The notes beneath the pieces are model-generated. The model worked only from the letters and a program-made list of their open reading frames with translations, did no database searches and was not told the DNA's origin. Shown here in pieces: positions 2,031-51,718 of a stretch of DNA of 52,697 bases. A program made the translations under genes and the position numbers. Within the stretch, counting starts at the first letter, position 1, and the number at the start of each line of letters is the position of its first letter. Source of the stretch: Clostridia bacterium (GTDB taxonomy: Bacteria; Bacillota; Clostridia; RGIG7378). The stretch covers positions 1 to 52,697 of the forward strand of contig JAFVXO010000117.1 in NCBI GenBank assembly GCA_017501105.1. Reading direction: 5' to 3'.

Positions 2031-4137
2031 CTTGAGTTGCCTCTCCGTTGGTTGCTTCCTTGGCCCTGGATGCACACAATGGGTTACCGCACTTGACCAG
2101 GCGCCTGCGCTTAAAGTAGTTAGTCACCATAAAGCCACCACAGGTAGGGCAGGTTTTGTTATTCACAACGGTTCCCCATTCCATGTAGTCGCAGCTGGGA
2201 TTGTGCTCGCAGACCAGGTACTTCTTGCCCTTCTTGGTGGTGCGCTCCAGTACACTGCCTCCGCACTTGGGACAGTTGGCTCCGGAATCCACTCTGATAG
2301 GCTTGGAGTTCTTGCACTTGGGGTATCCGGGGCATGCCAGGAACTTGCCATTCCTGCCTGTCTTGACCACCATATTACGACCGCACTTGTCGCAGACCAC
2401 GTCGGAAACCTCCTCCTTGATCTCCATGGTGCTGATTTGAGTCTGAGCCTTGAGTATGGAATCCGCAAATGGACCATAGAAATCTCTGAGGATTTCCTTC
2501 CAGTTAGCGTCGCCCTCAGAAATGGAGTCCAACTTGTTTTCCATATCTGCAGTGAAATTCTTATCTACTATCTCTGTAAAGTTGTCCACCATAAGTTCGT
2601 TGACAACAGAGCCCAATTCCGTGGGAACCAGGTACTTCTTATCTCGCTCCACATAGGTTCTGGACACAATGGTGGCGATGGTAGGTGCATATGTGCTGGG
2701 ACGGCCGATACCCTCCTCCTCTATTGCCTTGATGAGGGTCGCCTCTGTGTATCGCTGAGGAGGCTGGGTGAAGTTCTGCTTGTCCTCCAATTTGTTAAGA
2801 GTCAAACAATTGCCCACCTCTAATGCGGGCAGCTTAACTGCAGTGTCGTCCTCCTTGGCATCGTCGGTGGTCTCCTCGTAGAGTGCCAGATATCCGGGGA
2901 ATGTAACCTTGCTGCCGGAGGCCTTAAATGTGTGGCCGTTGCAGTCGATATCCACCTGCATAGTGTCGTAGGTGGCTGAGGCCATAAGGCTGGCCAGGAA
3001 TCTATCCCAAATCAGCTTGTACAGCTTATACTGCTCACTTGTCAGAGATCCCTTGATATCCTCGGGGTGCAGGTCCAGATGGGCAGGTCTGATGGCCTCG
3101 TGGGCGTTTTGGCTGCCGGACTTGTTCTTGTAATAACGATCCTTGGCAGGCAAATACTGGCTGCCATAGGTGCTGCGTATAATCTCTTTGCCTGCTGCTC
3201 TGGCCTCGTCTGCAATACGGGTAGAGTCTGTTCTGATATATGTTACCAAACCTGTGGAGCCATGGCCCTGTATCTCAACGCCCTCGTAGAGCTGCTGAGC
3301 AATCTGCATGGTGCGTCCACTGGTAAATCCGTACTTGCGGGATGCGTCCTGCTGGAGAACACTGGTGGTAAATGGCGGTGCAGGGTTGCGGGTCTTGGTA
3401 CCCTTCTTGATACCTGATACTGTAAACTGCTGACCATTAATATCTGCCAACACCTTGTCTACTGCGGCCCTGTTGGGCAGAGCCTTCTTCCGGCCTTGTT
3501 CGCCGTAGTATTTGGCGTCAAAGGAAACACTCTCTCCTACAGGCGATAGGTTTGCTGTAATTGTCCAGAACTCCTTGGGCTCAAAGGACTTTATCTCCTT
3601 CTCCCTGTCACAGATCATACGGACCGCCACAGACTGTACTCTGCCTGCGGATAGTCCCTTCTGCACCTTGTTCCACAAAATTGGACTGATCTTGTACCCC
3701 ACAATGCGGTCCAGAATACGCCTGGTCTGCTGTGCGTCTACCAGGTGCATGTCTATGGCCCGAGGGCTCTGCAGTGCGGCCTTAACCGCATTGCCGGTAA
3801 TTTCGTTAAAGGTAATACGGCAGGGAGATTGGGGATCTATGCCCAAAATAGTGGCAGTATGCCATGCAATTGCTTCTCCCTCGCGATCAGGGTCCGATGC
3901 AATCAGAACCTGCTTGGCCTTGGATGCGTGCTTCTTCAGATTAGTAATAACGTCTGCCTTGCCTGTGATATTCACATATCTGGGCTTAAAGTCTCTGTCT
4001 ACATCTACGCCCAGCTGATTGGTAGGCAAATCTCTGATATGGCCTACTGTGGCCTCAACGTCAAAAGAGCCATCAAGAAACTTCTTGATAGTCTTAACCT
4101 TGGTTGGGGACTCTACAATTATCAAACACTCAGACAT
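2014..4137 (-). CDS. topA: DNA topoisomerase I
   Basis: TOPRIM start MSECLIIVESPTKVKTIKKFL, DPDREGEAIAWH, active-site region YIRTDS, and C-terminal Cys4 zinc ribbons (CDKCGRNM..CPGYPKC, CPKCGG..CEHNPSC, CPTCGG). Confidence 0.95.
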   Translation of the reverse strand: MSECLIIVESPTKVKTIKKFLDGSFDVEATVGHIRDLPTNQLGVDVDRDFKPRYVNITGKADVITNLKKHASKAKQVLIASDPDREGEAIAWHTATILGIDPQSPCRITFNEITGNAVKAALQSPRAIDMHLVDAQQTRRILDRIVGYKISPILWNKVQKGLSAGRVQSVAVRMICDREKEIKSFEPKEFWTITANLSPVGESVSFDAKYYGEQGRKKALPNRAAVDKVLADINGQQFTVSGIKKGTKTRNPAPPFTTSVLQQDASRKYGFTSGRTMQIAQQLYEGVEIQGHGSTGLVTYIRTDSTRIADEARAAGKEIIRSTYGSQYLPAKDRYYKNKSGSQNAHEAIRPAHLDLHPEDIKGSLTSEQYKLYKLIWDRFLASLMASATYDTMQVDIDCNGHTFKASGSKVTFPGYLALYEETTDDAKEDDTAVKLPALEVGNCLTLNKLEDKQNFTQPPQRYTEATLIKAIEEEGIGRPSTYAPTIATIVSRTYVERDKKYLVPTELGSVVNELMVDNFTEIVDKNFTADMENKLDSISEGDANWKEILRDFYGPFADSILKAQTQISTMEIKEEVSDVVCDKCGRNMVVKTGRNGKFLACPGYPKCKNSKPIRVDSGANCPKCGGSVLERTTKKGKKYLVCEHNPSCDYMEWGTVVNNKTCPTCGGFMVTNYFKRRRLVKCGNPLCASRAKEATNGEATQDESDN

Positions 4138-18634: not shown

Positions 18635-21600
18635 TTAGTTATTAACTAAAACCAGCTTCTCCAGCAGTTCCTTAACCGACCGCACCGCAGCTGCATTGTC
18701 CATGGGCACCCGCAAGGTGATACTGGGGTGTTCGCTGGCATTGAATCTCAATTTATCCCCATAGTCTCCCACCAACTGCAGCAATGCCTGAGGCTTTAGC
18801 TTGCCCTTGGCCTCGAACCGCAACTCCGCATTGCCCTTCTCTATGTGCACTGTAGTAAACCCGCAGCTTGTAGCCAGGGCCTTGACCAGCGCTACCTGTA
18901 TCAGGTTTTCCGTCTCCTTTGGGATGTCGCCAAATCTGTCTATCAACTCGTCCCTCATGTCCATGGCATCGTCCTCTCCGGACAGAGACGCAATTCTCTT
19001 GTAGATATCCAACTTTGCAGAATCGTTGGGCACATATTCGGGATCGATATAGGCGTCCACAAGCACCTCGATGGTGGCCTCCGGAATTTCCTCCCTGACA
19101 GGCTCTCCTGTGAGCTCCGCCACCGCCTGGTTCAACAGCTTGCAGTACATGTCATATCCAACGGATGCCATATGTCCATGTTGCTCCGGACCCAACACGT
19201 TGCCGGCGCCCTGATCTCCAGGTCTCGCAAAGCTATTTTGTAGCCTGCGCCAAATTCGGTAAACTCCTTGATTGCCTTAATTCTGGCCTCTGCGGCCTCG
19301 TTCATCACCTTATCTCTGCGGTGCAGGATATAGGCATATGCCAGTCTGTTGCTACGACCCACTCGGCCGCGAATCTGATACAGCTGGGCCAATCCCAACT
19401 TGTCTGCATCCTCTACGATAATAGTGTTGGCATTGGGATAGTCCAATCCCGACTCGATAATAGTGGTAGACACCAGCACATTAAACTCGTTTCTGTAGAA
19501 GCTGTGCATTTTTGCCTCCAGCTCCCTCTCCTCCATCTGGCCGTGAGCATAGTCCACCATGGCCTCAGGCACCAGTTGACGCAGTTCCTCTGTCTTGCGC
19601 TCAATGTCGGATACGCGGTTGTACAGGTAGAACACCTGACCGTTGCGGGCCAGTTCCCTGCATATAGCCTCCCTGACCACATCCTCGTCCTGCTCCATTA
19701 CAAAGGTCTGCACGGGATAGCGCTCCTCCGGAGGCTCCTCGATTATGGATATGTCCCTGATGCCGCTCATGGACATATGGAGAGTCCTCGGGATAGGTGT
19801 GGCGGTCATAACCAATGTGTCCACGTTTGGTTTCAGAGTCTTGATCCTCTCCTTGTCGGCCACGCCAAATCTCTGCTCCTCATCGATGACAAAGAGTCCA
19901 AAGTCCGAAAATTTCACATCCTTGGACAGTATTCGATGGGTGCCAACCAATATGTCGATCTGGCCTTTGGATAACCTATCCAATATGTCTGCCTGCTGCT
20001 TCTTGCTCTTGAATCTGCTTAGGCTCTCAATCCTGACAGGGTAATCCTGTATTCTGCGCTCCAGGGCCTCAGTCTGTTGTTGACACAGAACTGTAGTAGG
20101 CACCAGGTATGCCACCTGCTTGCCGTCCATAACGGCCTTGAACATGGCACGAGTGGCTACCTCTGTCTTTCCATAGCCCACGTCTCCACACAGGAGTCTG
20201 TCCATGATTCTCTCGGACTCCATGTCTGCCTTTATTTCCTCAATGCACCTCAGCTGGTCATCAGTTTCGGCAAATTCGAACTTATCCTCGAACTCTCTCT
20301 GCCATGCAGTGTCCTTGGAGAAGGCATGGCCCTTGGTGGTACGGCGCTTTTGGAACAGCAAAATGAGTTCTGATGCCAGTTCTTTTAGGGACTCCTTGAC
20401 CTTAGCCTTGGTTTTCTGCCATTCCTGACCTCCCAGCTTGTTTACCTTTGGCCCTGCTCCACCTGTACCTATATACTTCTTGATCAGATCCAACCTGTCC
20501 GAGGGCAGGTAAAGCACGTCGGTACCGCTATACTTTACCTTGATGTATTCTCTGGTAGTCTTGTCGATGGTCAGCTTTTCCAGGCCCTGGTACTGGCCGA
20601 TTCCGTGGATATTGTGAACTACGTAATCGCCGATGGACAACTCCGCAAAGTCTGTTATTGTCTTGGCATCCTTGTTCTTGGACTTGCCGCCCGTGCGAAC
20701 CGCCTTTCCCGTCAGTTCCTTGTCGGTAATCACCACTAATTTGGCGCCGGGATACTCAAATCCGTTGCCCAGCTGTCCCAATATAATAGTCACCTCGCCG
20801 GGAGTAGCCGCAAAGTTGTACTCTCTCTTGATGGATACCTTCAGGGTCTCTCTGGTTTGAAGCATAGACTGGATTCCCTTGGCTCTGGTGCTGCCATTTG
20901 CCACCACCACAATGCGATACCCGAGTGTAGCCCAGTTTGTCAAATCCTCCAGCAGCTGGGTCTCTCTGCCTGAATAGGGGGACAGCAGTCTGACTGGCAT
21001 GGCGTAGGTCTTGGTATCCCTCTCGGACATAACCGAGTTGATGATTATTCTGTTGCGCCTCTCCAGCTTAGTCAGCAGGTCATCTTTGGAAAGCAGGTTT
21101 CCCTCTGCGGAGGGCAATACACTGCCCTTCTCCCTCAGAACTCTGACCAGCTCGCCATATTCCATAGCATAGTTCGCAAAACGGTCGTATACCCTGGCCC
21201 GTTCGTCCAGCACCACAATTGCTTCCCTGTCCAGATAGTCAAACAGGTCTGCCTCCATGCCCGGAATCAGGCGAATGTACCTATCCATGGGACTGGTCCA
21301 TCCGGATGCCTCGTACCTCTCAAAATCGCTGTCTATGGCCTCGCCAACAGCCTTGATTCTGTCTGCGTAGTGGGCATCCCTGTGGGAAGCGGCGTATATG
21401 TCCAGCTCTGCCAAGGCATTCTCCCTGACCAATTGTCGATGGTCAGGATTTAGGATAATGTCCGTAGCAGGCAATATGGTAATCCGATCCACGCTGTCGA
21501 TGGACCTCTGGGTAAATCTGTCAAAATAGCGGATGGTGTCGATGTCGTCGCCCCAATACTCCATACGTATGGCATTGTCGGAACCCACAGGGAAAATGTC

Positions 21601-22134
21601 CACAATGCCGCCTCGCACTGCAAACTGTCCCTGGCCGGAAACCTGGGCCTCCCGCACATATCCTGCGGTGATCAGGGACCTCATCAGGTCATCCACTGAC
21701 AACGTCATGCCTGCCTGGAGTTCAATCCTGGCGTCATAGAACACCTCCCTGGTTGGCAACCTGTGGAACATTGCTTCAGGAGATGTAATTACAAATCTAT
21801 ACGCATTTTTTGAGAGAGTGTTTAATGCCGCGATTCGGCTGCGCACATTGTCTCTGGTAAAGCCATCCACACTGTGCATCAGAATTTCCTTGGACAGGAA
21901 CAGACAGGCCTCACTGTCGAAGAATCTGAAGTCCTCAAATATCCTCTTAGCTGCCAATTCGTTGGCGGCCACATACACCATTCGGCGGCCTGTAATTACG
22001 GAAATTGCATAGCAAATATGGGCCTTCTCCGACGCGGAGGGGCCTGTCAAAGCAGCCTTACCGTCTGTCTCCATAGCGTGGATTAGTCCGGTAATTGCAG
22101 AAATATTCCGTATTGGCTCTACAAAAGCCTGCAT
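18635..22134 (-). pseudogene. mfd: Transcription-repair coupling factor Mfd, split into two ORFs by a 1-nt frameshift (or an assembly homopolymer error)
   Basis: ORF 19132..22134 is Mfd up to ...KIALRDLEIR. ORF 18635..19198 continues in another frame with LGPEQHGHMASVGYDMYCKLL... Adding one G to the GGG run (plus-strand CCC 19209-19211) restores the conserved DLEIRGAGNVLGPEQHGH block. The total span is 3500 nt, and 3501 nt would give 1166 aa. Confidence 0.9.
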
Positions 22135-37876: not shown

Positions 37877-39565
37877 TTACTTGTGTCCGGCTCTTAATTT
37901 CTTCTGTCGCCTGTTCCAAATAACCATAACTCCGCCGACAAGCAGGATAGATCCAACAAGCGCAGAAACAATAATCAGTGTCAGTGTACCAAGTCCAATT
38001 CCTAGTCCATTGGTGGTGCCGGTAATAATGTACTGCACACCATCCTCGTCCGTCAGAGTGGACCCATCATAATCTATGCCATACTCCTTGGCCAGTGTCT
38101 TAGGAATGTTAACTTTGTCATCCTCAATGCCCGAGACATTAAGGGCAATCAAGTACTGTCCAGATACAGTGCCTGCCACATTATATGCGGCCATTCCCTC
38201 ATCATCCACAATGACGCTGGAAAGCTCCGTTAACTTTTTACCGTTTATGCTGTATAGAGTAGCCACTTGTCTTGCAGCATCTAACCCCAAGGGGAATCTT
38301 ACTGTTGTATTGTAGGTATTGCTGCCTAAAACAGCAGTATACGTAACAACGTCTCCCAGTAGATTTGCAAAGGATCCGGCCTCGTTGCGCACAATGGCAA
38401 CACTCAAGTTCTGCTGCCCGCTAATGGAGCTTGACGTCTGATCCTTAAACACAACATCCCAATAAACGTTGTCTGACGTATGAATTGTTACTGTAATGTC
38501 TAATTCAGAAAGCTCATCAAGCACGCCCTGCTCTATTACATCATAGTCCTGAATCTGGACCATTACATTAGGCTTCTCTCCTGAAGACAGAACATCTATT
38601 ATCTCATCAATAAGATCATCCCATCCTGATGAGTCCTTAATATTAGCACTAATGGTTGTTCCATACTCCTGCTCTGGCAGATATTCATTTTCTCTTATAG
38701 GCAGCTTATTGACTGTGGTTATGATTGCGCCATCTGTCTCCGAATATGTAATATCATTCCTAAAGGTCTCGTCGTCTCTAAGGACACATTCCTCGTCAAG
38801 CTGTTTTTGCAACTCCTGCTTAACCTCTTGTGTTCCGCCATAATCTACAAAATACAGGTTGGGACATTCGGATACAGCGTTATACTCAACAGTCTCAATA
38901 GTCTCCGGAAGATATAATTCCCAAAGAGCCCTACAGCCATAGAAGGTCCAGTAAGGAAGCACATCTAACCTACCTAAAACCCTGGCATATACCAGGTTGC
39001 TGCAATATGAAAAAGCACTATTTCCCAAATACGTTACGCTCTCAGGGATGGTAATGCCAGCAAGACTCTTGCAGCTGTAGAAGGCTTTGTCTCCAATAAC
39101 CTCCAGTGTGGATGGAAGATTAAGGTTTACCAGAGCCTTGCAGTCATAAAAACAGGCCCAACCTATCTCCTTCACTGCCGGCATATATATCTGAACTAAG
39201 CTATAGCAGTCCGAAAAGGCCAGGTTGCCCAATGAAACTACGCTGCTATCCATTTTAACAGTGGTAAGATTAACGCACTGGTAAAAAGCCATGTTGCCAA
39301 TGGACCTAACACCATCTGATACAACTACTCTCTGAATATCAGAGGCGAAACTGAACCATGGCGCCGGATATACCTCGGAATAATCTGCCATATCTCCTGT
39401 TCCTGAGACAGTAAGGACACCGCAATCATAGGACCATGTTACATTGTCGCCGCAGGAACCAGAGGCTTCTTCTGCCAGACCAACCACAGAAAAAGACAAG
39501 ACAAAGCTCGTAAGTATAGCCAATGCCATAATCAATGATATTAACTTGTGAGTACGAACAGTCAT
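37877..39565 (-). CDS. BspA-type leucine-rich-repeat surface protein with a signal peptide and a C-terminal transmembrane anchor
   Basis: Signal/TM segment LISLIMALAILTSFVLSFSVVGLA. Repeats of the form IGNMAFYQCVNLTTV / LGNLAFSDCYSL / IGDKAFYSCKSLAGITIP / LGNSAFSYCSNL. C-terminal LTLIIVSALVGSILLVGGVMVIW followed by a basic tail. Confidence 0.75.
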   Translation of the reverse strand: MTVRTHKLISLIMALAILTSFVLSFSVVGLAEEASGSCGDNVTWSYDCGVLTVSGTGDMADYSEVYPAPWFSFASDIQRVVVSDGVRSIGNMAFYQCVNLTTVKMDSSVVSLGNLAFSDCYSLVQIYMPAVKEIGWACFYDCKALVNLNLPSTLEVIGDKAFYSCKSLAGITIPESVTYLGNSAFSYCSNLVYARVLGRLDVLPYWTFYGCRALWELYLPETIETVEYNAVSECPNLYFVDYGGTQEVKQELQKQLDEECVLRDDETFRNDITYSETDGAIITTVNKLPIRENEYLPEQEYGTTISANIKDSSGWDDLIDEIIDVLSSGEKPNVMVQIQDYDVIEQGVLDELSELDITVTIHTSDNVYWDVVFKDQTSSSISGQQNLSVAIVRNEAGSFANLLGDVVTYTAVLGSNTYNTTVRFPLGLDAARQVATLYSINGKKLTELSSVIVDDEGMAAYNVAGTVSGQYLIALNVSGIEDDKVNIPKTLAKEYGIDYDGSTLTDEDGVQYIITGTTNGLGIGLGTLTLIIVSALVGSILLVGGVMVIWNRRQKKLRAGHK

Positions 39566-39586: not shown

Positions 39587-40258
39587 TTAGGTTAATTCCT
39601 GTACCTTTGAGGAATTCTTCTTAATAGTGCTCAGCCAAACAATTCCAATAATTATTGAAACAATGGACCACACAGTTCCCCAGGGAGGGAATCCACCTTT
39701 GTATAGGTCATATTCTTGCCTGAAGAAATTCAGGAAAAACCTTGTCACTCCATAAAGCACCATAAACAAAGGATACAATTTCCCTCTATGCTTTCTTGAT
39801 ATTGCTAATGTCAACAAAATTGCCATAAGAATTACCGCGTTTATAAATTCTGCCTGCTGACTTGGGAAGTTATAATTTATTCCAAACAAGGATATATCTC
39901 TTCCACCACAGCAACCTGACATACAACAATTAATCTTCATAGCCGCTAACATTACGCAAATGCAAACGGAAAACTCATCTAGCAAATCACTCATCTTTTC
40001 TCTAACAACAAAAGATTCAGCTATTGCTGCTAATGGCATTATAAATACACAACCAAAAAATGATATCCCATCGAATCTACCATTTTCAATAAAATGCCAA
40101 AAAGATGCGCTAAGCAATCCTATAACTGACGACAAAAAAACTATAAGAGGCAACTTATATATCCTTAGCCTATAGCTTTTAGCAACTATTCCCATAGGAA
40201 GCAGCATGCTTACTGCACCTATGAGAACGTATAAAAGAATTGCACCTAAACGTTCCAT
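39587..40258 (-). CDS. Lgt-family (prolipoprotein diacylglyceryl transferase-like) polytopic membrane protein
   Basis: FPSQQAEF resembles Lgt HPSQLYE. LYPLFMVLYGVTRFFLNFFRQE resembles Lgt LYLxxYGxxRFxxEFxR. INCCMSGCCGGRD resembles the GCCYG-type loop. It has about 6 transmembrane segments. At 223 aa it is shorter than housekeeping Lgt. Confidence 0.6.
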   Translation of the reverse strand: MERLGAILLYVLIGAVSMLLPMGIVAKSYRLRIYKLPLIVFLSSVIGLLSASFWHFIENGRFDGISFFGCVFIMPLAAIAESFVVREKMSDLLDEFSVCICVMLAAMKINCCMSGCCGGRDISLFGINYNFPSQQAEFINAVILMAILLTLAISRKHRGKLYPLFMVLYGVTRFFLNFFRQEYDLYKGGFPPWGTVWSIVSIIIGIVWLSTIKKNSSKVQELT

Positions 40259-44850: not shown

Positions 44851-45312
44851 CTATCTCAGCCGTCTCCTGATCCCGGCAAGGCACCTGCCACAAAAATGGC
44901 GAATGCCTCGTGAACAATGCCAGATCCGGCTGTATAGTAGATATCCCATATTATTTACAGAATAATACTTTGTACCACGATAAAAACCTGTGACTATGGC
45001 AATAATCTGGTCATGTCGGATGCCATGCTCCAGATTGAACTGATTATCGCCAATGCAAGTATATGTCTTCCCTACTTTAACCACTCTGTGTAGAACAAAA
45101 CAGCCATCGTCTCTCCTGTACAGAGGAATATCATATTTTCTAGGTACGCCCTTATACGATTCTAAAATTACACTGTCTACCCCTTGACGCAACATGGGTA
45201 ACATACTGATACCCCGTGGGGAGAATTTGACAGGTTTGCCTTGAGCTAAATATTCCTCTATCAACGGCATCAGTTGCTCGAGATGTATCTCGTTCTCAAA
45301 TGAGCAATCCAT
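44851..45312 (-). CDS. S24/S26 (clan SF) serine-peptidase-like protein without a transmembrane segment
   Basis: PRGISMLPML matches the GxSMxP nucleophile motif. FVLHRVVKVG...CIGDNQ resembles the HR / GDN boxes of SipW/Sec11-type signal peptidases, or the K of LexA-type S24. There is no hydrophobic anchor, and the C-terminal tail is basic and Cys-containing. Its start overlaps the PqqD-like gene by 17 nt. Confidence 0.65.
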   Translation of the reverse strand: MDCSFENEIHLEQLMPLIEEYLAQGKPVKFSPRGISMLPMLRQGVDSVILESYKGVPRKYDIPLYRRDDGCFVLHRVVKVGKTYTCIGDNQFNLEHGIRHDQIIAIVTGFYRGTKYYSVNNMGYLLYSRIWHCSRGIRHFCGRCLAGIRRRLR

Positions 45313-45556
45313 TGTCTTTTAGCTTATTTACAAAGCGCTGGACACCTGCCCTGGCAGTCGCCTCGTCTACGCTATATTCTCTAAGTAATGCAGCAACCAA
45401 TCTGTCCTCATCTGTATCCTGCTGCAATTCCTGCCACAGAAATTTTCCTGTGTCGTTTAGTTTAATCATCTTGGTAAGATCCAGATCGTCACCGGTTGGC
45501 AGGACAACAGTTGTTCCTGCGACCTCTCTTACAATATAACCATCTTTAATCTTCAT
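45296..45556 (-). CDS. PqqD-family protein (RiPP recognition element-type peptide chaperone)
   Basis: 86 aa: DGYIVREVAGTTVVLP...MIKLNDTGKFLWQELQQDTDEDRLVAALLREYSVDEATARAGVQRFVNKLKDNGLL. This is the typical PqqD/RRE pattern (beta-strands followed by a winged helix). It overlaps the kinase gene by 11 nt. Confidence 0.8.
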   Translation of the reverse strand: MKIKDGYIVREVAGTTVVLPTGDDLDLTKMIKLNDTGKFLWQELQQDTDEDRLVAALLREYSVDEATARAGVQRFVNKLKDNGLLI

Positions 45557-46262
45557 TTGAATCCTCCAACTTACGACCAGACATGGCCTCGTAGGATAGA
45601 CGAACTGCCTCCGGTTCCATATTACATTTGAGTTTCCATACAGGCACCTTAGTCAACAGTTGGTCCAATAACTCCAGTATCTTAATACGGTGCTCCACTT
45701 CAGTCGACTTAGTTGACTGTTTAAGTATAGCTCCTATGGCCTGCACTCCACCAAAAGGCTCTATAGTGTTAGTCTCACCTCTCTCCAGACAGGCAATGCC
45801 TGCCAGAGGAACTCTCTTGTTTACACTAATATCGTGCTTACCACTCCATGGTGTACCATATACGTACCAGATGCCATCCTCTAATCGAAGAGCCGGCTTA
45901 TCGTCATTGATAATATAGGCTCTCTGGCCAAAATGTTGTAGCCATAGACTAGTATGGGTGGATTTGCCCGTACCACTGTTTGCTGTAAATAGATATGCCT
46001 TATTGTCCACCACCACAGCGGAAGAGTGAAGCATAAAGCCATCAAAATTAAAGAGCTGGGTATAAAAGGATTTGCCTGTAGATAAATACTCACAATCGTC
46101 ATCAGACAAGCGGGGAAACAAATTCTTTACATATTGGATATCAGAATGAACCTTAATATCTATGCCAGGACAACTATCTATCTGGTATGGTATGCTTTGT
46201 TCCAGAGTCCTACCATAGCTGTCCATCTCAACATATAACCCAGCAATCTTGTAAATTCCCAT
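45546..46262 (-). CDS. HPr-kinase-C-terminal-like P-loop kinase (HprK-related)
   Basis: FMLHSSAVVVDNKAYLFTANSGTGKSTHTSLW is a P-loop in the HprK-like context, followed by GTPWSGKHD. It is 238 aa with no recognisable N-terminal HprK domain. Confidence 0.7.
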   Translation of the reverse strand: MGIYKIAGLYVEMDSYGRTLEQSIPYQIDSCPGIDIKVHSDIQYVKNLFPRLSDDDCEYLSTGKSFYTQLFNFDGFMLHSSAVVVDNKAYLFTANSGTGKSTHTSLWLQHFGQRAYIINDDKPALRLEDGIWYVYGTPWSGKHDISVNKRVPLAGIACLERGETNTIEPFGGVQAIGAILKQSTKSTEVEHRIKILELLDQLLTKVPVWKLKCNMEPEAVRLSYEAMSGRKLEDSNED

Positions 46263-46306: not shown

Positions 46307-46328
46307 CCCCCCAGTGAAGACTGGGGGG
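46307..46328 (-). promoter_or_regulatory. GC-rich hairpin between the small ORF and the kinase gene (attenuator / processing-stabiliser candidate)
   Basis: CCCCCCAG-TCTTCA-CTGGGGGG on the minus strand, an 8-bp stem (46307-46314 and 46321-46328). It begins 15 nt after the small-ORF stop. No clean U-tract follows (AATAGTTCTATT). Confidence 0.5.
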
Positions 46329-46343
46329 ATAATCTAATTCAAG

Positions 46344-46439
46344 TTAGACGAGCTCGCTGGTCTCCCAAGGATCATTAACCATAACTTCCTCTGTCTCCAG
46401 AGAGATTACCTCAATCTCAGGATTCTCATAATTCTTCAT
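46344..46439 (-). CDS. Unlisted 31-aa acidic small ORF, candidate precursor or signalling peptide
   Basis: My manual translation gives MKNYENPEIEVISLETEEVMVNDPWETSELV*. AGGAGG lies 8 nt upstream of ATG 46439, which is 21 nt after the stop of the 1734-aa gene. A hairpin follows, then the kinase/PqqD/peptidase genes. It falls below the ORF-track length cutoff. Confidence 0.55.
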   Translation of the reverse strand: MKNYENPEIEVISLETEEVMVNDPWETSELV

Positions 46440-46460
46440 GTATAAATACCTCCTAAAAAA

Positions 46461-49400
46461 TTATTTACCAAAGTAGATTCTAGCATATTCGCCGTAGATT
46501 ACCATCCTTCTACATGCCTCTGCCAAGTCGCCACCACTATTTCTGTCAATAACAACTCTTGTATACTCTTCAGGGCTGAATGCAATTACATCACTGTAAT
46601 ACTCATTGCCTTCAGCATCCTCAAAGTATGCACAAGCATATATTGTCTTAGAGTAGAGAGCGGCGGGATAAATGTCAGACTTACCCTTATAGCGTCCATT
46701 GTCCTCAAGATCCATATCTACGGTATATGATACATTACCTGTAGTAAGTTGTCCACTTACTCCATCCCAAACCAACAGCTCATGCACTGTAGCCTCGCCA
46801 CTGAATGTGAAATAGTAGTTAATCTCAGTTGCTGCATCCAGAGACAATGTCTTACCAATATGTACTACCTCTGCATCACCTGTGATGTTTGTGTCTGCAG
46901 CGACAAGATCTGTCAACAAATCTGCATTCCATTCCTCAGGTGGATACTGAGCTACAATACTTGCATTTGCAAGGTCATCAGTATTGTGGTTGAAATTAAT
47001 CTGTGCCGCTGTACCATAGTGCAGCAATGCAATACATGTGTCTACAAGAGCAGGATTATTGTTCCTTGCAATTACAGACTCGCAGTAATCCTGAACACTG
47101 AACTCCTTGAGTTCGCTGTAGTAGTAGTTATCTCCTACCTTAACGTAGCCTCTGATGTAGATCTCGTCTGCAAACTCAGCCGCATCAAAGCCATCTGTCT
47201 GACCGCCCCAGCCCCAGTTTGCATTTTCTGATAATACCAGGCCTACCTTGTTAATTGCGTCTGTATTGGTAATAACTGCATCCTCCAGGTTAGGCTCACT
47301 GTACCAGACAAGCATACCACTGTTGGTGGACATATCTACTCCATCAAAGCCTGTGACCTTAAAGTAAGAGTTAATGAATACCTCTGCCTCCAGAGACAAT
47401 GTAGAACCGTTGTATACGATGGTACCATTGGTCTCGTCTACAACAATAGTTACATCGTAGTTATCGTTGTCGTATGTAACCTCTCCGTCAGCATACTGAA
47501 GGTTAAGTACATCAACGCCCTCTCTGGCAAGAACATCATCATCGAACTCAACGTCCTTAATCACGCCATTTTCAACAATAACCTTAATATTTACCGGACG
47601 AGCTACAATCTCGAATACACCTGTCTCTACATCTACCTCGTAGTAACCGGAATTCTCAGTTACATCTGCGAAGATAGTGTACTTACCGACATTTTCTCCC
47701 TGCACTCTCTGGATCTCCACAAGGATGTCATACAAGCTGGACTCGTCATCCATTGTGTAAGTGAACTCCGGATCTGCGTCGCCATAGTACTTCCAGTCGT
47801 CATCAACAATTACATCGGCATGAATCTCATAATCCAGAGCCTTAAGAATCTGCTGTGAAATATATGCATGACCTGTTGCATTCGGATGCAGTGCAGAGCC
47901 GCCTGTTGCTAAGGTTTCGTACAAGTACTCAGGAACCTTGATTGTAATGGGTTTACCGTGTACAGAAACTGTCTTCCAATCTGTAAGATCCACAAGATTC
48001 TTGTTTGCATCTGTGTCAGAAATGCACAGTTCTGTGTCGGGAATGGCAACCGTTACAATGCGGCTACCACTGTCTGCAGCAGTATCATTGCCAGCATAGT
48101 CGCCTACAAAGTTTGTAAGGAAGCGATTTGACTCCTTAACAACCAACTCTGTAATAGCAGATGTGTTAATGACAAACTTGGAAAGATCAACTGTATGCCC
48201 CTTAACCTCAACTACTTTGTTCACCTTAACATATGTGTCCTCGAGAGGATTGTAGAATCCAACAAGAACGATTGTAGCGTCCTTATTCATTTCAGCAATA
48301 GTCTCTACTGCAGCATCAAGGTTGGCCACATAGCCAATACATCCATATGCAAAGGACTCAACAGCTACAAAGAATGTCTCCAAAGCTCTCTTGCACTCAT
48401 CATATGCAGAAATGCCGGTTTCGTCCTCGAGACGACTATCTGCGTTGTCTACCAGATAGAGGAGCATATCCATAGCAACATCTTTACCCTTTTCAAATCT
48501 TGCTACATTTCTGGTGGAGAAGTACTGAGTCCAATCCATCTCGTAGATATCCTCTCCGTTGTAGGCAAGCAGTGCCTGAGTCATGGGGTATGTCACGAGA
48601 TTGTTGATACCAACCTCCAGTGTTATCAGCTCAGCGTCAACAATAGCTGCCTGATACTGAGCCTTAATGCCGGCAATATTAAACTTAGCATCTGTATATG
48701 CATCGCCGGAGTAGTTGTTAGATACGATAGCCAACAACTCCTCTGTTCTCATGCCATTAATAGCAAGGTTGTTAATCTTGTCATTATCGTAGTTGGCGAT
48801 ATCCTTGTACTCCATAGCAAGAGCATCTGCCAACATATCTACATATGTCTTGTCTCCACTATTGAGTGCTGTGCCGCTGGTAACATTGTCACCAAGAGCT
48901 ACAAATGCCTCGGGATTAATAATTGTAGCGGCCTGACCAGAACCTGTTGTGGGCAAGGACAGGTACTTCTTAGTAATGTGATAGATGTCCTTGGCACCAT
49001 TTACAACCTTATCAATAAGGCTGTTTGCAAGGCTACCAGCTGTGGACTCCATATCCTCACCGTTAATAGCGGCAACAATACGATTTGCAATGTACTGATG
49101 ACCATTTGCGCTAGGCATTATCATCATACCATCTGCCAAATAGTATCTAAGTGCCAGATATGCAACTGTCATCTCATCATCTTCAAGAGTCTGGTTAACA
49201 AGCAGATTGTCTACCATATCAAGGATATAGGACTGACCTCCGGCAACAACCTTCTTTCCAACGGAGATAATGTCATTAAGGCTGATAACTTCAATCTCTG
49301 CCAGATCCTTAAGCATTTCGTAAACAGGATCCAGGTACTCATTGATTGTATCTGCACTGCTCATTGCAAGATCAATGGCCTCAACATACTTGTCATATCC

Positions 49401-51665
49401 CTCAAGTATCTTGGAAATTGCTGTCTCGCGAAGCTCATCAAAGTTACCAAAGTTTCCTACATTAAGCTTGCCATCTGCGTCGCAGTTCTCATTGTAAACC
49501 TTGAGAATCTCTGCAACTGTTGTTTCCTTAATCTCAACAAAGTCTGCACAAGCTTCTGCTGCTGTATCTACACTCTCCAGATATAACTTAACCGCATCAA
49601 TAGAAGATTCGGCTGCATCAGAATAAATCTCATATGCTTCATTAAATTCTGTAACAAGCACATCATAAACTGCTGGTACTCCAATCAAGTTATCCCAGTC
49701 ATTCGCAATCAAAACACTATCAAGCCATGTCTTAAGGGCTGTGTCCTTATCTACTGCATTATCCATAGATAGGAATAAACCATAGATGTCTTCTGAAGAA
49801 ATTTTATTTCCAAAGATATCTATAATCATCTGATATGTCTTTGCCTTAGCTGCAGCAGCTGCGCGAATCTCATTTCGTACAATATCCTCTGCCGCTTCGC
49901 CATTAGGTGCTGTCTCTATAGCTGTAACAAACGCATCAACAGAACTATATGTGGCTATATTAAGCCCATTTGAGTTATAAGACTCCTCTACCTTTGAGAC
50001 AATATAGTCGTGGAAAATATCATTGATGAGGTACTCTCTTGCAACAGCCCCAGGATTGTTGGAAGCCTCCATAGCAAGAAGCATAGCAATTGCCTTGTCT
50101 TTTGAATATGTACCCTCTCCAACGATACTCTCGACCTTTTCAACAATCTTGTCTGCGGCAAGTTCACGAACCCACTTGTTAGCAACGTCCTCTCTCTCTG
50201 CCTCAGTGCCACATGCTCTCAGGTCCTCAATCAACTGTTCTACATTTTCTACTGTTACGTATCCTGACAGTTCGTAATCCTCGATATATCCGTAGATAAC
50301 CTTAGCTGCAGCCTGATTCTGCAGGGTTTCATCCTCAATAAGGGAGTCAACAAAATCCTCAGCTACCTGCTGACGAGCTGCCTCATCTGCAGCGGCCTCA
50401 AGATCGGCCAACAGGTCAGAAATGTCCTCTGGATCAATTACCTCGTTCTCCTCATCAGCAAACTGTCCAAGGTACTCGAGAAGTTCTCTTTGGAACTGAT
50501 CCTCGATCTCTGCTATAACGTAACCCTGCAACTCGCTCTTGATGAACTCCTTCTCTGTGCCATTTTCCTTGGCCTCAATGAGTTCCTCAAGGAAACCAAG
50601 AGCCTCAATCTGAGTCTTGGAAATACCATATTCTGCAAAAATGTCAATTACCTCATTAACAGCCGCATCGCCGGAAAGGTTAACGAGTTCCATGATAAGT
50701 CCCTCGGGAATACGCTCATTATCAGTAAGCTTTGTGTTGCCCATCTGATCGATAAGGAGCTCCGGAGCTCCCGGATCAACATAAGTATAGTTATATGCTC
50801 TGGGAGCAAGAACCTGAACATATGCATTGGCAATCTCTACCAAGCCTCCAAAGAAGTCGCCAACAGGCAACTCTATGGGCCTGCCACCCTTGGAAAGCTT
50901 ATCGTAGGTAAGAACCTCACCCTCAGCAGGGTTGTAAATTCCAACAATGTACAACTCCACATCAGGGTTCAGCTCGTAGATTGTAGAAACCATTGCGTTA
51001 AAGCTGGTAACATAGCTAAGCACTGCATATGTGGAAACCTCTGCGATAAAGTCAATAAGCTCGATAGCCACATCAACATCATCGTTTGCTGCGCTTAACA
51101 TAAGGTTCTTGATAGTAGCCTTAACCTTCTCAAGGGCGGACTGAACATCCTCCTCAAAGAATGCATCGAAGCTGTAGCTGTACTTGACCTCTCCGTCATT
51201 CTCCAAATAATGCATCATCTGCTCCACAATGTACGTGGAGAAGTTGTTAACACCGGCATTAATTGTGATGACCTCTGCACCGGCAATCCATCTCCTGACG
51301 GTTGCGGTGTTACGCTCCATTTCACCTACTACGCTTCTAGTGTATCCGTCACCATTATAGCTGTCATCCATCAGGTAGCGAATCTCCTCAACTCTGTAGC
51401 GCTTATCTGCCTTAATACGATAGTCATCTTCTCCATCGATAAGACCAGCAGTTGCCAATGCCTGGGCGACCAGCACATAGTATGCCTCCTGCTCTGGATA
51501 CTCCAATCCAGTGCCTAGGGACATGGCGTCACCCAGTGCCAGATAGCCTGCCTCATCGAGCTCTGGTGTAGTGATAGCTGCCAAGGTCGGACTCATGACA
51601 TTAAACACCATCGCAAGAGCCAAAAGCAGTGCGCTGCACTTCCTTAAACACTTACCAATACGCAT
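46461..51665 (-). CDS. Giant (1734 aa) secreted protein: two degenerate SGNH/GDSL-like domains, a long acidic helical insertion, an MBG domain and a duplicated C-terminal module
   Basis: Signal peptide MRIGKCLRKCSALLLALAMVFNVMSPTLAA. SGNH-like blocks occur twice: LGDAMSLG / GVNN / VGIYNP / MPSANGHQYIA, and LGDNVTSG / GINN / VGFYNP / LHPNATGHAYIS. MBG-like segment KYYGDADPEFTY...GENVGKYTI (47595-47792). I moved the start to ATG 51665 (AAGGAGA RBS), because the track start 51713 lies at the predicted transcription start. Confidence 0.7.
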   Translation of the reverse strand: MRIGKCLRKCSALLLALAMVFNVMSPTLAAITTPELDEAGYLALGDAMSLGTGLEYPEQEAYYVLVAQALATAGLIDGEDDYRIKADKRYRVEEIRYLMDDSYNGDGYTRSVVGEMERNTATVRRWIAGAEVITINAGVNNFSTYIVEQMMHYLENDGEVKYSYSFDAFFEEDVQSALEKVKATIKNLMLSAANDDVDVAIELIDFIAEVSTYAVLSYVTSFNAMVSTIYELNPDVELYIVGIYNPAEGEVLTYDKLSKGGRPIELPVGDFFGGLVEIANAYVQVLAPRAYNYTYVDPGAPELLIDQMGNTKLTDNERIPEGLIMELVNLSGDAAVNEVIDIFAEYGISKTQIEALGFLEELIEAKENGTEKEFIKSELQGYVIAEIEDQFQRELLEYLGQFADEENEVIDPEDISDLLADLEAAADEAARQQVAEDFVDSLIEDETLQNQAAAKVIYGYIEDYELSGYVTVENVEQLIEDLRACGTEAEREDVANKWVRELAADKIVEKVESIVGEGTYSKDKAIAMLLAMEASNNPGAVAREYLINDIFHDYIVSKVEESYNSNGLNIATYSSVDAFVTAIETAPNGEAAEDIVRNEIRAAAAAKAKTYQMIIDIFGNKISSEDIYGLFLSMDNAVDKDTALKTWLDSVLIANDWDNLIGVPAVYDVLVTEFNEAYEIYSDAAESSIDAVKLYLESVDTAAEACADFVEIKETTVAEILKVYNENCDADGKLNVGNFGNFDELRETAISKILEGYDKYVEAIDLAMSSADTINEYLDPVYEMLKDLAEIEVISLNDIISVGKKVVAGGQSYILDMVDNLLVNQTLEDDEMTVAYLALRYYLADGMMIMPSANGHQYIANRIVAAINGEDMESTAGSLANSLIDKVVNGAKDIYHITKKYLSLPTTGSGQAATIINPEAFVALGDNVTSGTALNSGDKTYVDMLADALAMEYKDIANYDNDKINNLAINGMRTEELLAIVSNNYSGDAYTDAKFNIAGIKAQYQAAIVDAELITLEVGINNLVTYPMTQALLAYNGEDIYEMDWTQYFSTRNVARFEKGKDVAMDMLLYLVDNADSRLEDETGISAYDECKRALETFFVAVESFAYGCIGYVANLDAAVETIAEMNKDATIVLVGFYNPLEDTYVKVNKVVEVKGHTVDLSKFVINTSAITELVVKESNRFLTNFVGDYAGNDTAADSGSRIVTVAIPDTELCISDTDANKNLVDLTDWKTVSVHGKPITIKVPEYLYETLATGGSALHPNATGHAYISQQILKALDYEIHADVIVDDDWKYYGDADPEFTYTMDDESSLYDILVEIQRVQGENVGKYTIFADVTENSGYYEVDVETGVFEIVARPVNIKVIVENGVIKDVEFDDDVLAREGVDVLNLQYADGEVTYDNDNYDVTIVVDETNGTIVYNGSTLSLEAEVFINSYFKVTGFDGVDMSTNSGMLVWYSEPNLEDAVITNTDAINKVGLVLSENANWGWGGQTDGFDAAEFADEIYIRGYVKVGDNYYYSELKEFSVQDYCESVIARNNNPALVDTCIALLHYGTAAQINFNHNTDDLANASIVAQYPPEEWNADLLTDLVAADTNITGDAEVVHIGKTLSLDAATEINYYFTFSGEATVHELLVWDGVSGQLTTGNVSYTVDMDLEDNGRYKGKSDIYPAALYSKTIYACAYFEDAEGNEYYSDVIAFSPEEYTRVVIDRNSGGDLAEACRRMVIYGEYARIYFGK

Positions 51666-51718
51666 ATAATTTCTCCTTCTAAAATAATACGGATTCTTAT
51701 TAAATTTAACCATAGTTT

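Follow-up and report, generated by a model that had tools for sequence, protein, structure and literature searches.

A 31-codon open reading frame (ORF) on the minus strand of contig JAFVXO010000117.1, from a Clostridia bacterium (assembly GCA_017501105.1; lineage RGIG7378), is a real, conserved gene under purifying selection. We analyzed the whole stretch of 52,697 nucleotides (nt), hereafter the window. The ORF probably encodes the precursor of a ribosomally synthesized and posttranslationally modified peptide (RiPP) and would correspond to LppA of the linear polyphosphorylated peptides (LPPs). The three genes behind it encode a kinase, a RiPP recognition element (RRE), and a peptidase that fall into the families of LppK, LppB, and LppS, and we class the locus as a divergent representative of the LPP kind with a reduced gene set, not as a plain member. 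A preliminary description of the window had proposed a RiPP precursor at this position, a proposal that is supported by the results below and that now has a published relative in the LPPs (Popov et al., Nat Commun 2026;17:6633; PMC13381572).

The 31-codon ORF is a conserved gene

The ORF encodes MKNYENPEIEVISLETEEVMVNDPWETSELV, in which we counted eight glutamates, one aspartate, and one lysine. The composition, the location of the ORF, and the presence of a well-spaced AGGAGG motif agree with the preliminary description, in which the strand (minus) had gone unstated. The ORF starts 21 nt past the stop codon of a gene for a 1,750-amino-acid (aa) protein and lies 81 nt ahead of the gene for the 238-aa kinase. 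Its size and ribosome-binding site are not significant by themselves, as both occur at chance frequency: the last 12.7 kb of the window contain 139 ORFs of at least 25 aa, and AGGAGG followed after 5 to 10 nt by ATG was observed eight times in the window, with 5.0 ± 2.2 expected (no enrichment). Scans of the window for sigma-70 promoters and for terminators also gave chance-level results only. We therefore judge the ORF a gene because it is conserved in related loci.

As related loci, we used 96 loci that carry the kinase gene and searched them with a hidden Markov model (HMM) of the precursor's N terminus (E < 0.01). The precursor ORF was found ahead of the same operon in about 27 of the 96 loci (26 by the HMM). 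In close homologues, the gene order is a giant protein, a small ORF (31 to 35 aa), a ScmC-like kinase, a PqqD protein, and a protein of about 150 aa. The gap between the small ORF and the kinase gene is 80 to 280 nt in most of the roughly 27 precursor-bearing loci and 0.4 to 1.5 kb in a few. When same-strand small ORFs from the 96 loci were clustered, three real families emerged, namely, out-of-frame shadows of the kinase, the PqqD proteins, and the precursor peptide. The position upstream of an RRE-containing operon, which had been singled out earlier as typical of RiPP precursors, is thus borne out by synteny.

The frame, start, and leader motif are kept across loci whose kinases share only 45 to 78% identity, and no orthologue with a disrupted reading frame was seen among the related loci examined. 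Compared with its counterpart at locus L001 (kinase 78% identical), the window precursor has six synonymous codon changes and two amino acid changes, giving proportions of 0.40 for synonymous (pS) and 0.066 for nonsynonymous (pN) differences. Over 18 leader codons in 210 pairs of sequences, pN/pS was 0.54 in frame versus 0.84 and 1.15 in the shifted frames. The C-terminal WETSELV is the same in L093 (kinase 68% identical), with three synonymous and no nonsynonymous changes. Substitutions are thus mostly synonymous in the precursor frame.

A profile of the family matched 4,947 representatives (E ≤ 0.001) in a search space of 1.84 billion sequences clustered at 50% identity; the 150 matches listed are all 32 to 73 aa long, and nearly all align from residue 1. 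The N-terminal pattern, given in the preliminary description as common in small clostridial peptides, is indeed widespread. No source gives the family members a name, and neither the peptide nor its longer relatives are covered by a Pfam or NCBIfam model; scans of the peptides with these libraries gave only subthreshold touches to thiopeptide and paeninodin leaders. A kinase-based scan of metagenome contigs returned a single, distant locus.

Logan and ENA gene calls contain the exact 31-aa product on 20 contigs, which come from several samples and invariably show the same context. At L001, L095, and similar loci, the counterpart ORFs are called as genes of 31 to 35 aa. The ORF had been described as invisible to annotation tracks. 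This holds for the NCBI source, which records the 238-aa kinase of this metagenome-assembled genome (MAG) and not the exact 31-aa sequence, but not for the Logan and ENA gene calls. The related statement that length-thresholded gene finders would miss the ORF does not hold for Prodigal-type callers, which call it on other contigs.

One could argue that the ORF arose by chance between the giant gene and the kinase gene, with a fortuitous AGGAGG and with the hairpin described below serving as the terminator of the giant gene. The chance frequencies of such ORFs and of AGGAGG-ATG pairs in the window, together with the missing NCBI record, would fit this explanation. It is nevertheless extremely improbable and already contradicted by the conservation of frame, start, and leader motif among diverged loci, by the bias toward synonymous changes, and by the size of the family.

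The family combines a YxxP leader with an acidic tail

Residues 1 to ∼21 of the window peptide form a leader with the motif Y4-x-x-P7-x-I9, and the rest is an acidic tail. The leader consensus of the family is MKKxYExPE[IL]E[VI]xxFxVEDIIT-x-S-G. The N-terminal motif noticed in the preliminary description is the YxxP RRE-binding motif of the lasso and LPP type. A comparison of the leader profile with the PDB returned a strand of the RIG-I C-terminal domain (E = 0.002), which we judged to be a chance beta-strand resemblance.

To describe the tails, we sampled 273 family members. A junction of the form [IVLM][IVLM]-T/A-x-S follows the leader in 196 of them. The median tail is 25 aa long, residues enriched in the tails are Gly, Asp, Ser, Glu, and Asn, and the mean net charge is −4.5 (negative in 268 members). 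Ser occurs in every tail, Trp in 110, and Cys in only 11. The window peptide is the shortest in the sample, and its hydroxyl residues after the leader are limited to Thr27 and Ser28, the latter being the sole Ser in this part.

Two further arrangements of small ORFs were seen. At L081, three precursor paralogues with different tails (positions 2254 to 2406, 2782 to 2880, and 3667 to 3810) surround one kinase gene, an arrangement typical of RiPP clusters with several substrates. A second family of small ORFs (54 to 56 aa; MA[ML]T.TEQ..YY.S[YF]...) lies 12 to 14 nt upstream of the kinase gene only in L013 (503 to 673) and L018 (5815 to 5979), and at L018 a normal precursor is found as well, at a greater distance upstream.

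The downstream genes encode proteins of the LppK, LppB, and LppS families

LPPs were described only in May 2026, from the lppA-K-B-S-D-N cluster of Paenibacillus alginolyticus DSM5050 and from other Bacilli (PMC13381572). In this cluster, lppA encodes the precursor, lppK an HprK-like kinase, lppB an RRE, lppS a SipW-type leader peptidase, lppD an MsbA-like exporter, and lppN an NTP transferase. LPP leaders have the motif YxxPxVLxHQxIxFETxxS, in which LppB binds YxxP (crystal structure 9x8z), and LppK places up to four phosphates on Ser3 of the core. LppS, with the catalytic residues S29/H68/D93, requires LppB and cleaves after T-1, the unphosphorylated precursor being cleaved poorly. In the heterologous host, LppN showed no activity, and LPPs have no known function (PMC13381572).

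The 238-aa kinase of the window belongs to Pfam family PF27840 (ScmC), which was found on all of its homologues, and the motifs SGTGKSTHT and NDDKPA are invariant among these. Its AF2 model (pLDDT 90.9) has HprK/P (1kkm, 2qmh) and ATP-dependent phosphoenolpyruvate carboxykinase as best Foldseek matches (probability 1.00). We liken the protein to LppK by family, motifs, and fold. In having a small HprK-related P-loop protein beside a PqqD-family chaperone, the locus also resembles the SynChlorMet (ScmC, TIGR04249) and HPr-rel-A (TIGR04352/TIGR04353) systems, the first of which shares the name of PF27840. The NCBIfam scores are, however, far under the curated cutoffs (29.4 versus 125 bits for ScmC and 16 versus 200 bits for HprK_rel_A), and Pfam scans of the window found no radical-SAM ScmE/F gene; there is also no HprK-related kinase B.

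The 86-aa RRE is a discrete PqqD-type protein with below-cutoff NCBIfam matches to lasso PqqD chaperones. Its sequence matches in the PDB are PbaB1 (9x90_B; E = 0.008), TbiB1, TfuB1, and LppB (9x8z_B; E = 0.25). The equivalents of the cleft residues Y60 and F74 of LppB are conserved in the RREs (F in 67 of 71).

The relatives of the RRE raise the question of whether the ORF encodes a lasso precursor whose cyclase and B2 protease are located elsewhere in the genome. Phosphorylated lasso peptides (paeninodin with PadeK; pseudomycoidin with PsmK/PsmN) likewise rely on an HprK-like kinase that acts on a precursor Ser, on secondary tailoring by a PF14907-type NTP transferase, on an ABC exporter, and on a discrete B1/RRE that binds a [Y/W]xxPx[L/V/I] leader. 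A YxxPx[LI] leader with a discrete PqqD RRE is a lasso hallmark, the best solved relatives of the RRE are lasso B1 proteins, and the leader has a weak likeness to the paeninodin family (E = 0.19). Even so, a lasso product is very improbable. No Asn-synthase-like macrolactam cyclase or transglutaminase-like B2 protease was found in the window or in the flanks of its relatives. The tail of MKNYENPEIEVISLETEEVMVNDPWETSELV is devoid of ring-forming features, as there is no Thr at position −2 followed by a Gly/Ala/Ser/Cys core with Asp/Glu at positions 7 to 9. The adjoining peptidase is moreover of the S26 type, as in LPP, and leader removal would here fall to this serine peptidase. As the macrolactam cyclase is missing among the scanned window genes, the product is expected to stay linear.

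The 153-aa protein had no Pfam or NCBIfam match, and its AF2 model (pLDDT 78.6) gave only weak fold matches to LexA, UmuD, and signal peptidase I (E ≥ 0.014). Its assignment as a peptidase consequently rests on a profile-profile match and on invariant residues. The family profile aligns with P. alginolyticus LppS (hhalign probability 96.1%; E = 3 × 10−9), and 26 homologues all keep S35 (RGISMLP), H74 (LHR), D88 (GDN), and E94; S35, H74, and E94 stand opposite the catalytic residues S29, H68, and D93 of LppS. LppS itself is described as a SipW homologue (PMC13381572). Like SipW, the archaeal/ER-type signal peptidase I of the Bacillus subtilis tapA-sipW-tasA operon, the 153-aa protein has an S26 fold with a catalytic Ser/His pair. 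It differs from SipW in lacking a transmembrane anchor, in its linkage to an RRE and a kinase, and in its presumed substrate, a cytoplasmic leader peptide instead of a secretion signal.

The locus is a divergent, minimal relative of the LPP clusters

The window and the LPP clusters have the gene order A-K-B-S in common. In both, a short precursor whose N-terminal leader reads KKxYxxPx[VI] is followed by a kinase of the HprK-like type, an RRE that is discrete and PqqD-type, and a SipW-type S26 peptidase that is soluble, and both lack a lasso cyclase. In relatives of the window, genes for an ABC exporter (∼555 aa) and for a PF14907 NTP transferase (∼400 aa) extend the operon; they are the equivalents of lppD and lppN. 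Like LPP loci, these loci are often surrounded by cell surface or capsule genes. Of the features that define an LPP cluster, the window has the SipW-type peptidase gene beside a discrete RRE and the HprK-like kinase, and it is without the LppD exporter and the LppN NTP transferase.

The published survey covers 199 peptidase homologues, almost all from Bacilli, with LPPs in 80 of 9,173 Bacilli genomes, and the main text has no mention of Clostridia (PMC13381572). Its Supplementary Data 1 places the clostridial peptidases SCH01704.1 (uncultured Ruminococcus) and CDA64014.1 in cluster 9 of the sequence similarity network (SSN); for the clostridial entries of this cluster, the RREs are counted as "RRE others" and the LPP precursor is given as "ND" (PMC13381572). 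The window peptidase is 40% identical to SCH01704.1 (E = 2 × 10−34), and the window RRE is 44% identical to SCH01659.1, from the same Ruminococcus pair (E = 5 × 10−22). The window peptidase accordingly falls in SSN cluster 9 and not in cluster 1, the one that was studied. Other differences from the described LPPs concern the host, which is an uncultured gut-type member of the Clostridia and not of the Bacilli, the precursor length (31 aa versus a published range of 35 to 200 aa), and the cores, which are acidic in the clostridial family, whereas the canonical ones are mostly rich in Gly, Asn, Pro, and Lys (by eye, from Supplementary Data 1). Where canonical leaders have LxHQxIxFET in their second half, the clostridial family has ExxxxFxxEDIIT(xS) and the window peptide has EVISLETEEVMV.

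Several results weigh against an LppA-like role for the ORF. Neither tblastn with the exporters of three relatives nor Pfam scans found an exporter in the window, and tblastn gave no match there for the PF14907 NTP transferase. A recognizable precursor is near the kinase in only about 27 of the 96 loci. An HMM of canonical LPP leaders had no match in these loci, where the LxHQxIxFET|xxS half is absent; when leader profiles were aligned, only MKKxYxxPx[IV] matched between the clostridial and canonical families (10 columns; probability 67%; E = 5 × 10−5). In the subclade of the window, V-N-D takes the place of the T-x-S junction; the Ser expected to be phosphorylated is thereby lost, and another residue must serve as the site. 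By the E values given above, the RRE is not nearer to LppB than to the lasso RRE PbaB1, and the RREs of the clade were classed as "RRE others" (PMC13381572). Finally, the column of LppB D70, which binds the Tyr hydroxyl, holds Asp in 30 of 71 RREs, and the window RRE has Gly71 there (about 45344 to 45346). All eight Phe leaders are paired with non-Asp RREs, and all five Asp RREs are paired with Tyr leaders. This pairing would fit the published hydrogen bond of the Tyr, albeit suggestively only: the sample is small, two entries of the table were corrected by hand, and the one-sided Fisher test (P of about 0.05, computed by hand) is uncorrected for phylogeny.

These differences could mean that the RiPP made from this ORF is related to the LPPs but differs from them chemically, the LPP scaffold being used to modify another residue or for another reaction (e.g., on Thr or by carboxylate activation), in which case the clade would be a class of its own. 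The departures from LPP in the second half of the leader and in core composition, the absence in the window of a Ser aligned with the LPP phosphosite, the kinase scores far below curated HprK-related models, and the exclusion of the clade's RREs from the LPP RREs in PMC13381572 would all be in line with such a chemistry. So would the low counts of the exporter (22) and the NTP transferase (15; e.g., L021, L041, and L053) within 6.5 kb of the kinase gene in 80 species-representative loci. In the same loci, the RRE is present in 53, the peptidase in 43, and a recognizable precursor in 15. We still consider a different chemistry rather unlikely. The relatives carry the same five-gene set in the same order, the kinase retains the P-loop, the NDD motif, and the HprK/P fold, and all of the sampled tails contain Ser, whose phosphorylation is the simplest expectation, as shown for LppK, PadeK, and PsmK.

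A broader proposal, which we regard as rather unlikely, is that the short, strongly acidic Trp/Ser-containing peptides of the clostridial clade form a very large class in their own right, one that uses the LPP scaffold for a chemistry or role of its own. The subclade of the window has no dedicated exporter or NTP transferase and has lost the usual Thr-x-Ser junction, and its genes are placed between those for giant surface proteins. If the proposal were true, a function at the cell surface or in signaling would fit these features better than a secreted, antibiotic-like product.

A hairpin separates the precursor gene from the enzyme genes

A GC-rich hairpin follows the precursor gene (−24.6 kcal/mol over 60 nt; z = −5.5). 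It was missed by the terminator scan because it has no T-run, and an Rfam scan of the window found nothing. An equivalent hairpin is present in 18 to 19 of 21 distinct loci (−20 to −31 kcal/mol per 60 nt; z = −4 to −8). The stem sequences are unrelated between loci, and a U-run follows in some of them only. The hairpin is likely a partial terminator or a transcript-stabilizing stem between the precursor and the enzyme genes.

Such a hairpin past the stop codon in nearly all of these loci might also indicate that the ORF is a cis-regulatory leader peptide (upstream ORF), whose translation would act with the hairpin to attenuate transcription or translation of the kinase, RRE, and peptidase genes while the peptide itself has no function. 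The ORF is very short, and the kinase gene has no obvious Shine-Dalgarno sequence of its own, as this explanation would have it. However, what is conserved in the peptide is a YxxP RRE-binding motif, not a run of regulatory codons, and selection at the amino acid level extends into the C-terminal tail. The tails are also long, at up to 73 aa, and hypervariable, and several paralogues are present at some loci. RiPP operons, moreover, usually have hairpins after their structural genes. A purely regulatory ORF is therefore improbable.

A proposed pathway and its wider occurrence

By analogy with the characterized P. alginolyticus cluster, we infer how the leader might be bound, which residue might be phosphorylated, where the peptide might be cleaved, and what the hairpin and the final product might do. 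The 86-aa RRE would bind the Y4-x-x-P7-x-I9 leader as an extended strand and present the peptide to the 238-aa kinase, which would phosphorylate a hydroxyl group in the tail, possibly more than once; Ser28 or Thr27 would be the most plausible sites. The 153-aa peptidase would then remove the leader around residues 21 to 23, releasing an acidic phosphopeptide of 8 to 10 residues that ends in WETSELV. At the RNA level, the hairpin probably ends or stabilizes a short, abundant precursor transcript, and read-through into the enzyme genes would shape the ratio of precursor to enzymes.

In uncultured Clostridia of the gut and rumen, the kinase-RRE-S26 peptidase machinery is much more common than the LPP clusters described so far would suggest. 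The kinase has at least 596 matches in a species-representative genome collection, and at 90% identity, its homologues form 4,893 clusters and those of the peptidase 1,212. We found no description of the clade's scale, of its acidic precursors, or of its substrate genes in the searchable literature. The family reported here supplies these missing substrate genes, as ∼4,947 unnamed acidic peptides of 31 to 73 aa (clusters at 50% identity). It offers precursor/enzyme pairs for probing the role of LPP-type phosphorylation and a leader motif for genome mining, and it calls for an annotation fix, as the precursor gene is absent from the GenBank-derived records of this MAG.

Features of the locus and neighboring genes

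Table 1. Features of the precursor locus in the 52,697-nt window
Feature	Position	Strand	Remarks
Precursor peptide gene (lppA-like)	46344..46439	minus	31 codons plus stop; ATG at 46439, TAA at 46346-46344; leader, synteny, codon-level selection
Shine-Dalgarno sequence AGGAGG	46449..46454	minus	9 nt 5′ of the precursor ATG; read from sequence
GC-rich hairpin CCCCCCAGU-CUUC-ACUGGGGGG	46307..46328	minus	15 nt past the precursor stop; no clear U-tract
HprK-like P-loop kinase, 238 aa (lppK-like)	45546..46262	minus	Pfam PF27840 (ScmC)
PqqD-type RRE, 86 aa, discrete (lppB-like)	45296..45556	minus	PF05402, E = 4e-19; 11-nt overlap with the kinase gene
Soluble SipW-type S26 (SpI-like) peptidase, 153 aa (lppS-like)	44851..45312	minus	17-nt overlap with the RRE gene; candidate leader peptidase
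1750-aa protein with GDSL-lipase and MBG domains (Pfam)	46461..51713	minus	Conserved upstream neighbor
1522-aa protein with N-terminal transmembrane segment	40267..44835	minus	Downstream neighbor; no Pfam/NCBIfam match

The giant gene upstream of the precursor has counterparts in several relatives. In L001, L002, L005, L021, L088, L090, L096, and L099, a giant ORF (1,200 to 2,350 aa) ends ∼20 nt before the precursor. Most of these proteins have GDSL/MBG domains, and no Pfam match is recorded for the one in L005. For unrelated genes, looser synteny would be expected.

On the other side of the operon, the 1,522-aa protein occupies the slot of the relatives' ABC exporter, and the same layout is found in L001 and in L095/L097, which are on one contig. 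By eye, its transmembrane segment followed by SYAWYT had looked like a TasA/SipW-cognate signal; an NCBIfam scan of the first 89 residues was unsupportive, and we set this candidate aside. A 223-aa protein (39587 to 40258, minus strand) sits between the 1,522-aa protein and a BspA-type LRR_5 protein (37877 to 39565). It matches only the C-terminal part of prolipoprotein diacylglyceryl transferase (Lgt; 36 bits versus a cutoff of 118.9) and could represent an Lgt paralogue, either truncated or diverged, within an island of surface proteins.

The rest of the window is made up of housekeeping genes (topA, pheST, rho, mfd, pth, ruvB, murC, an asnS/aspS-type synthetase gene, an aconitase gene, and serS). 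Among these, mfd seems to be split on the minus strand, as a 1,000-aa ORF (19132 to 22134; UvrB_inter, CarD, DEAD, and Helicase_C domains) overlaps a 187-aa ORF with the TRCF domain (18635 to 19198), which points to a frameshift or an assembly error.

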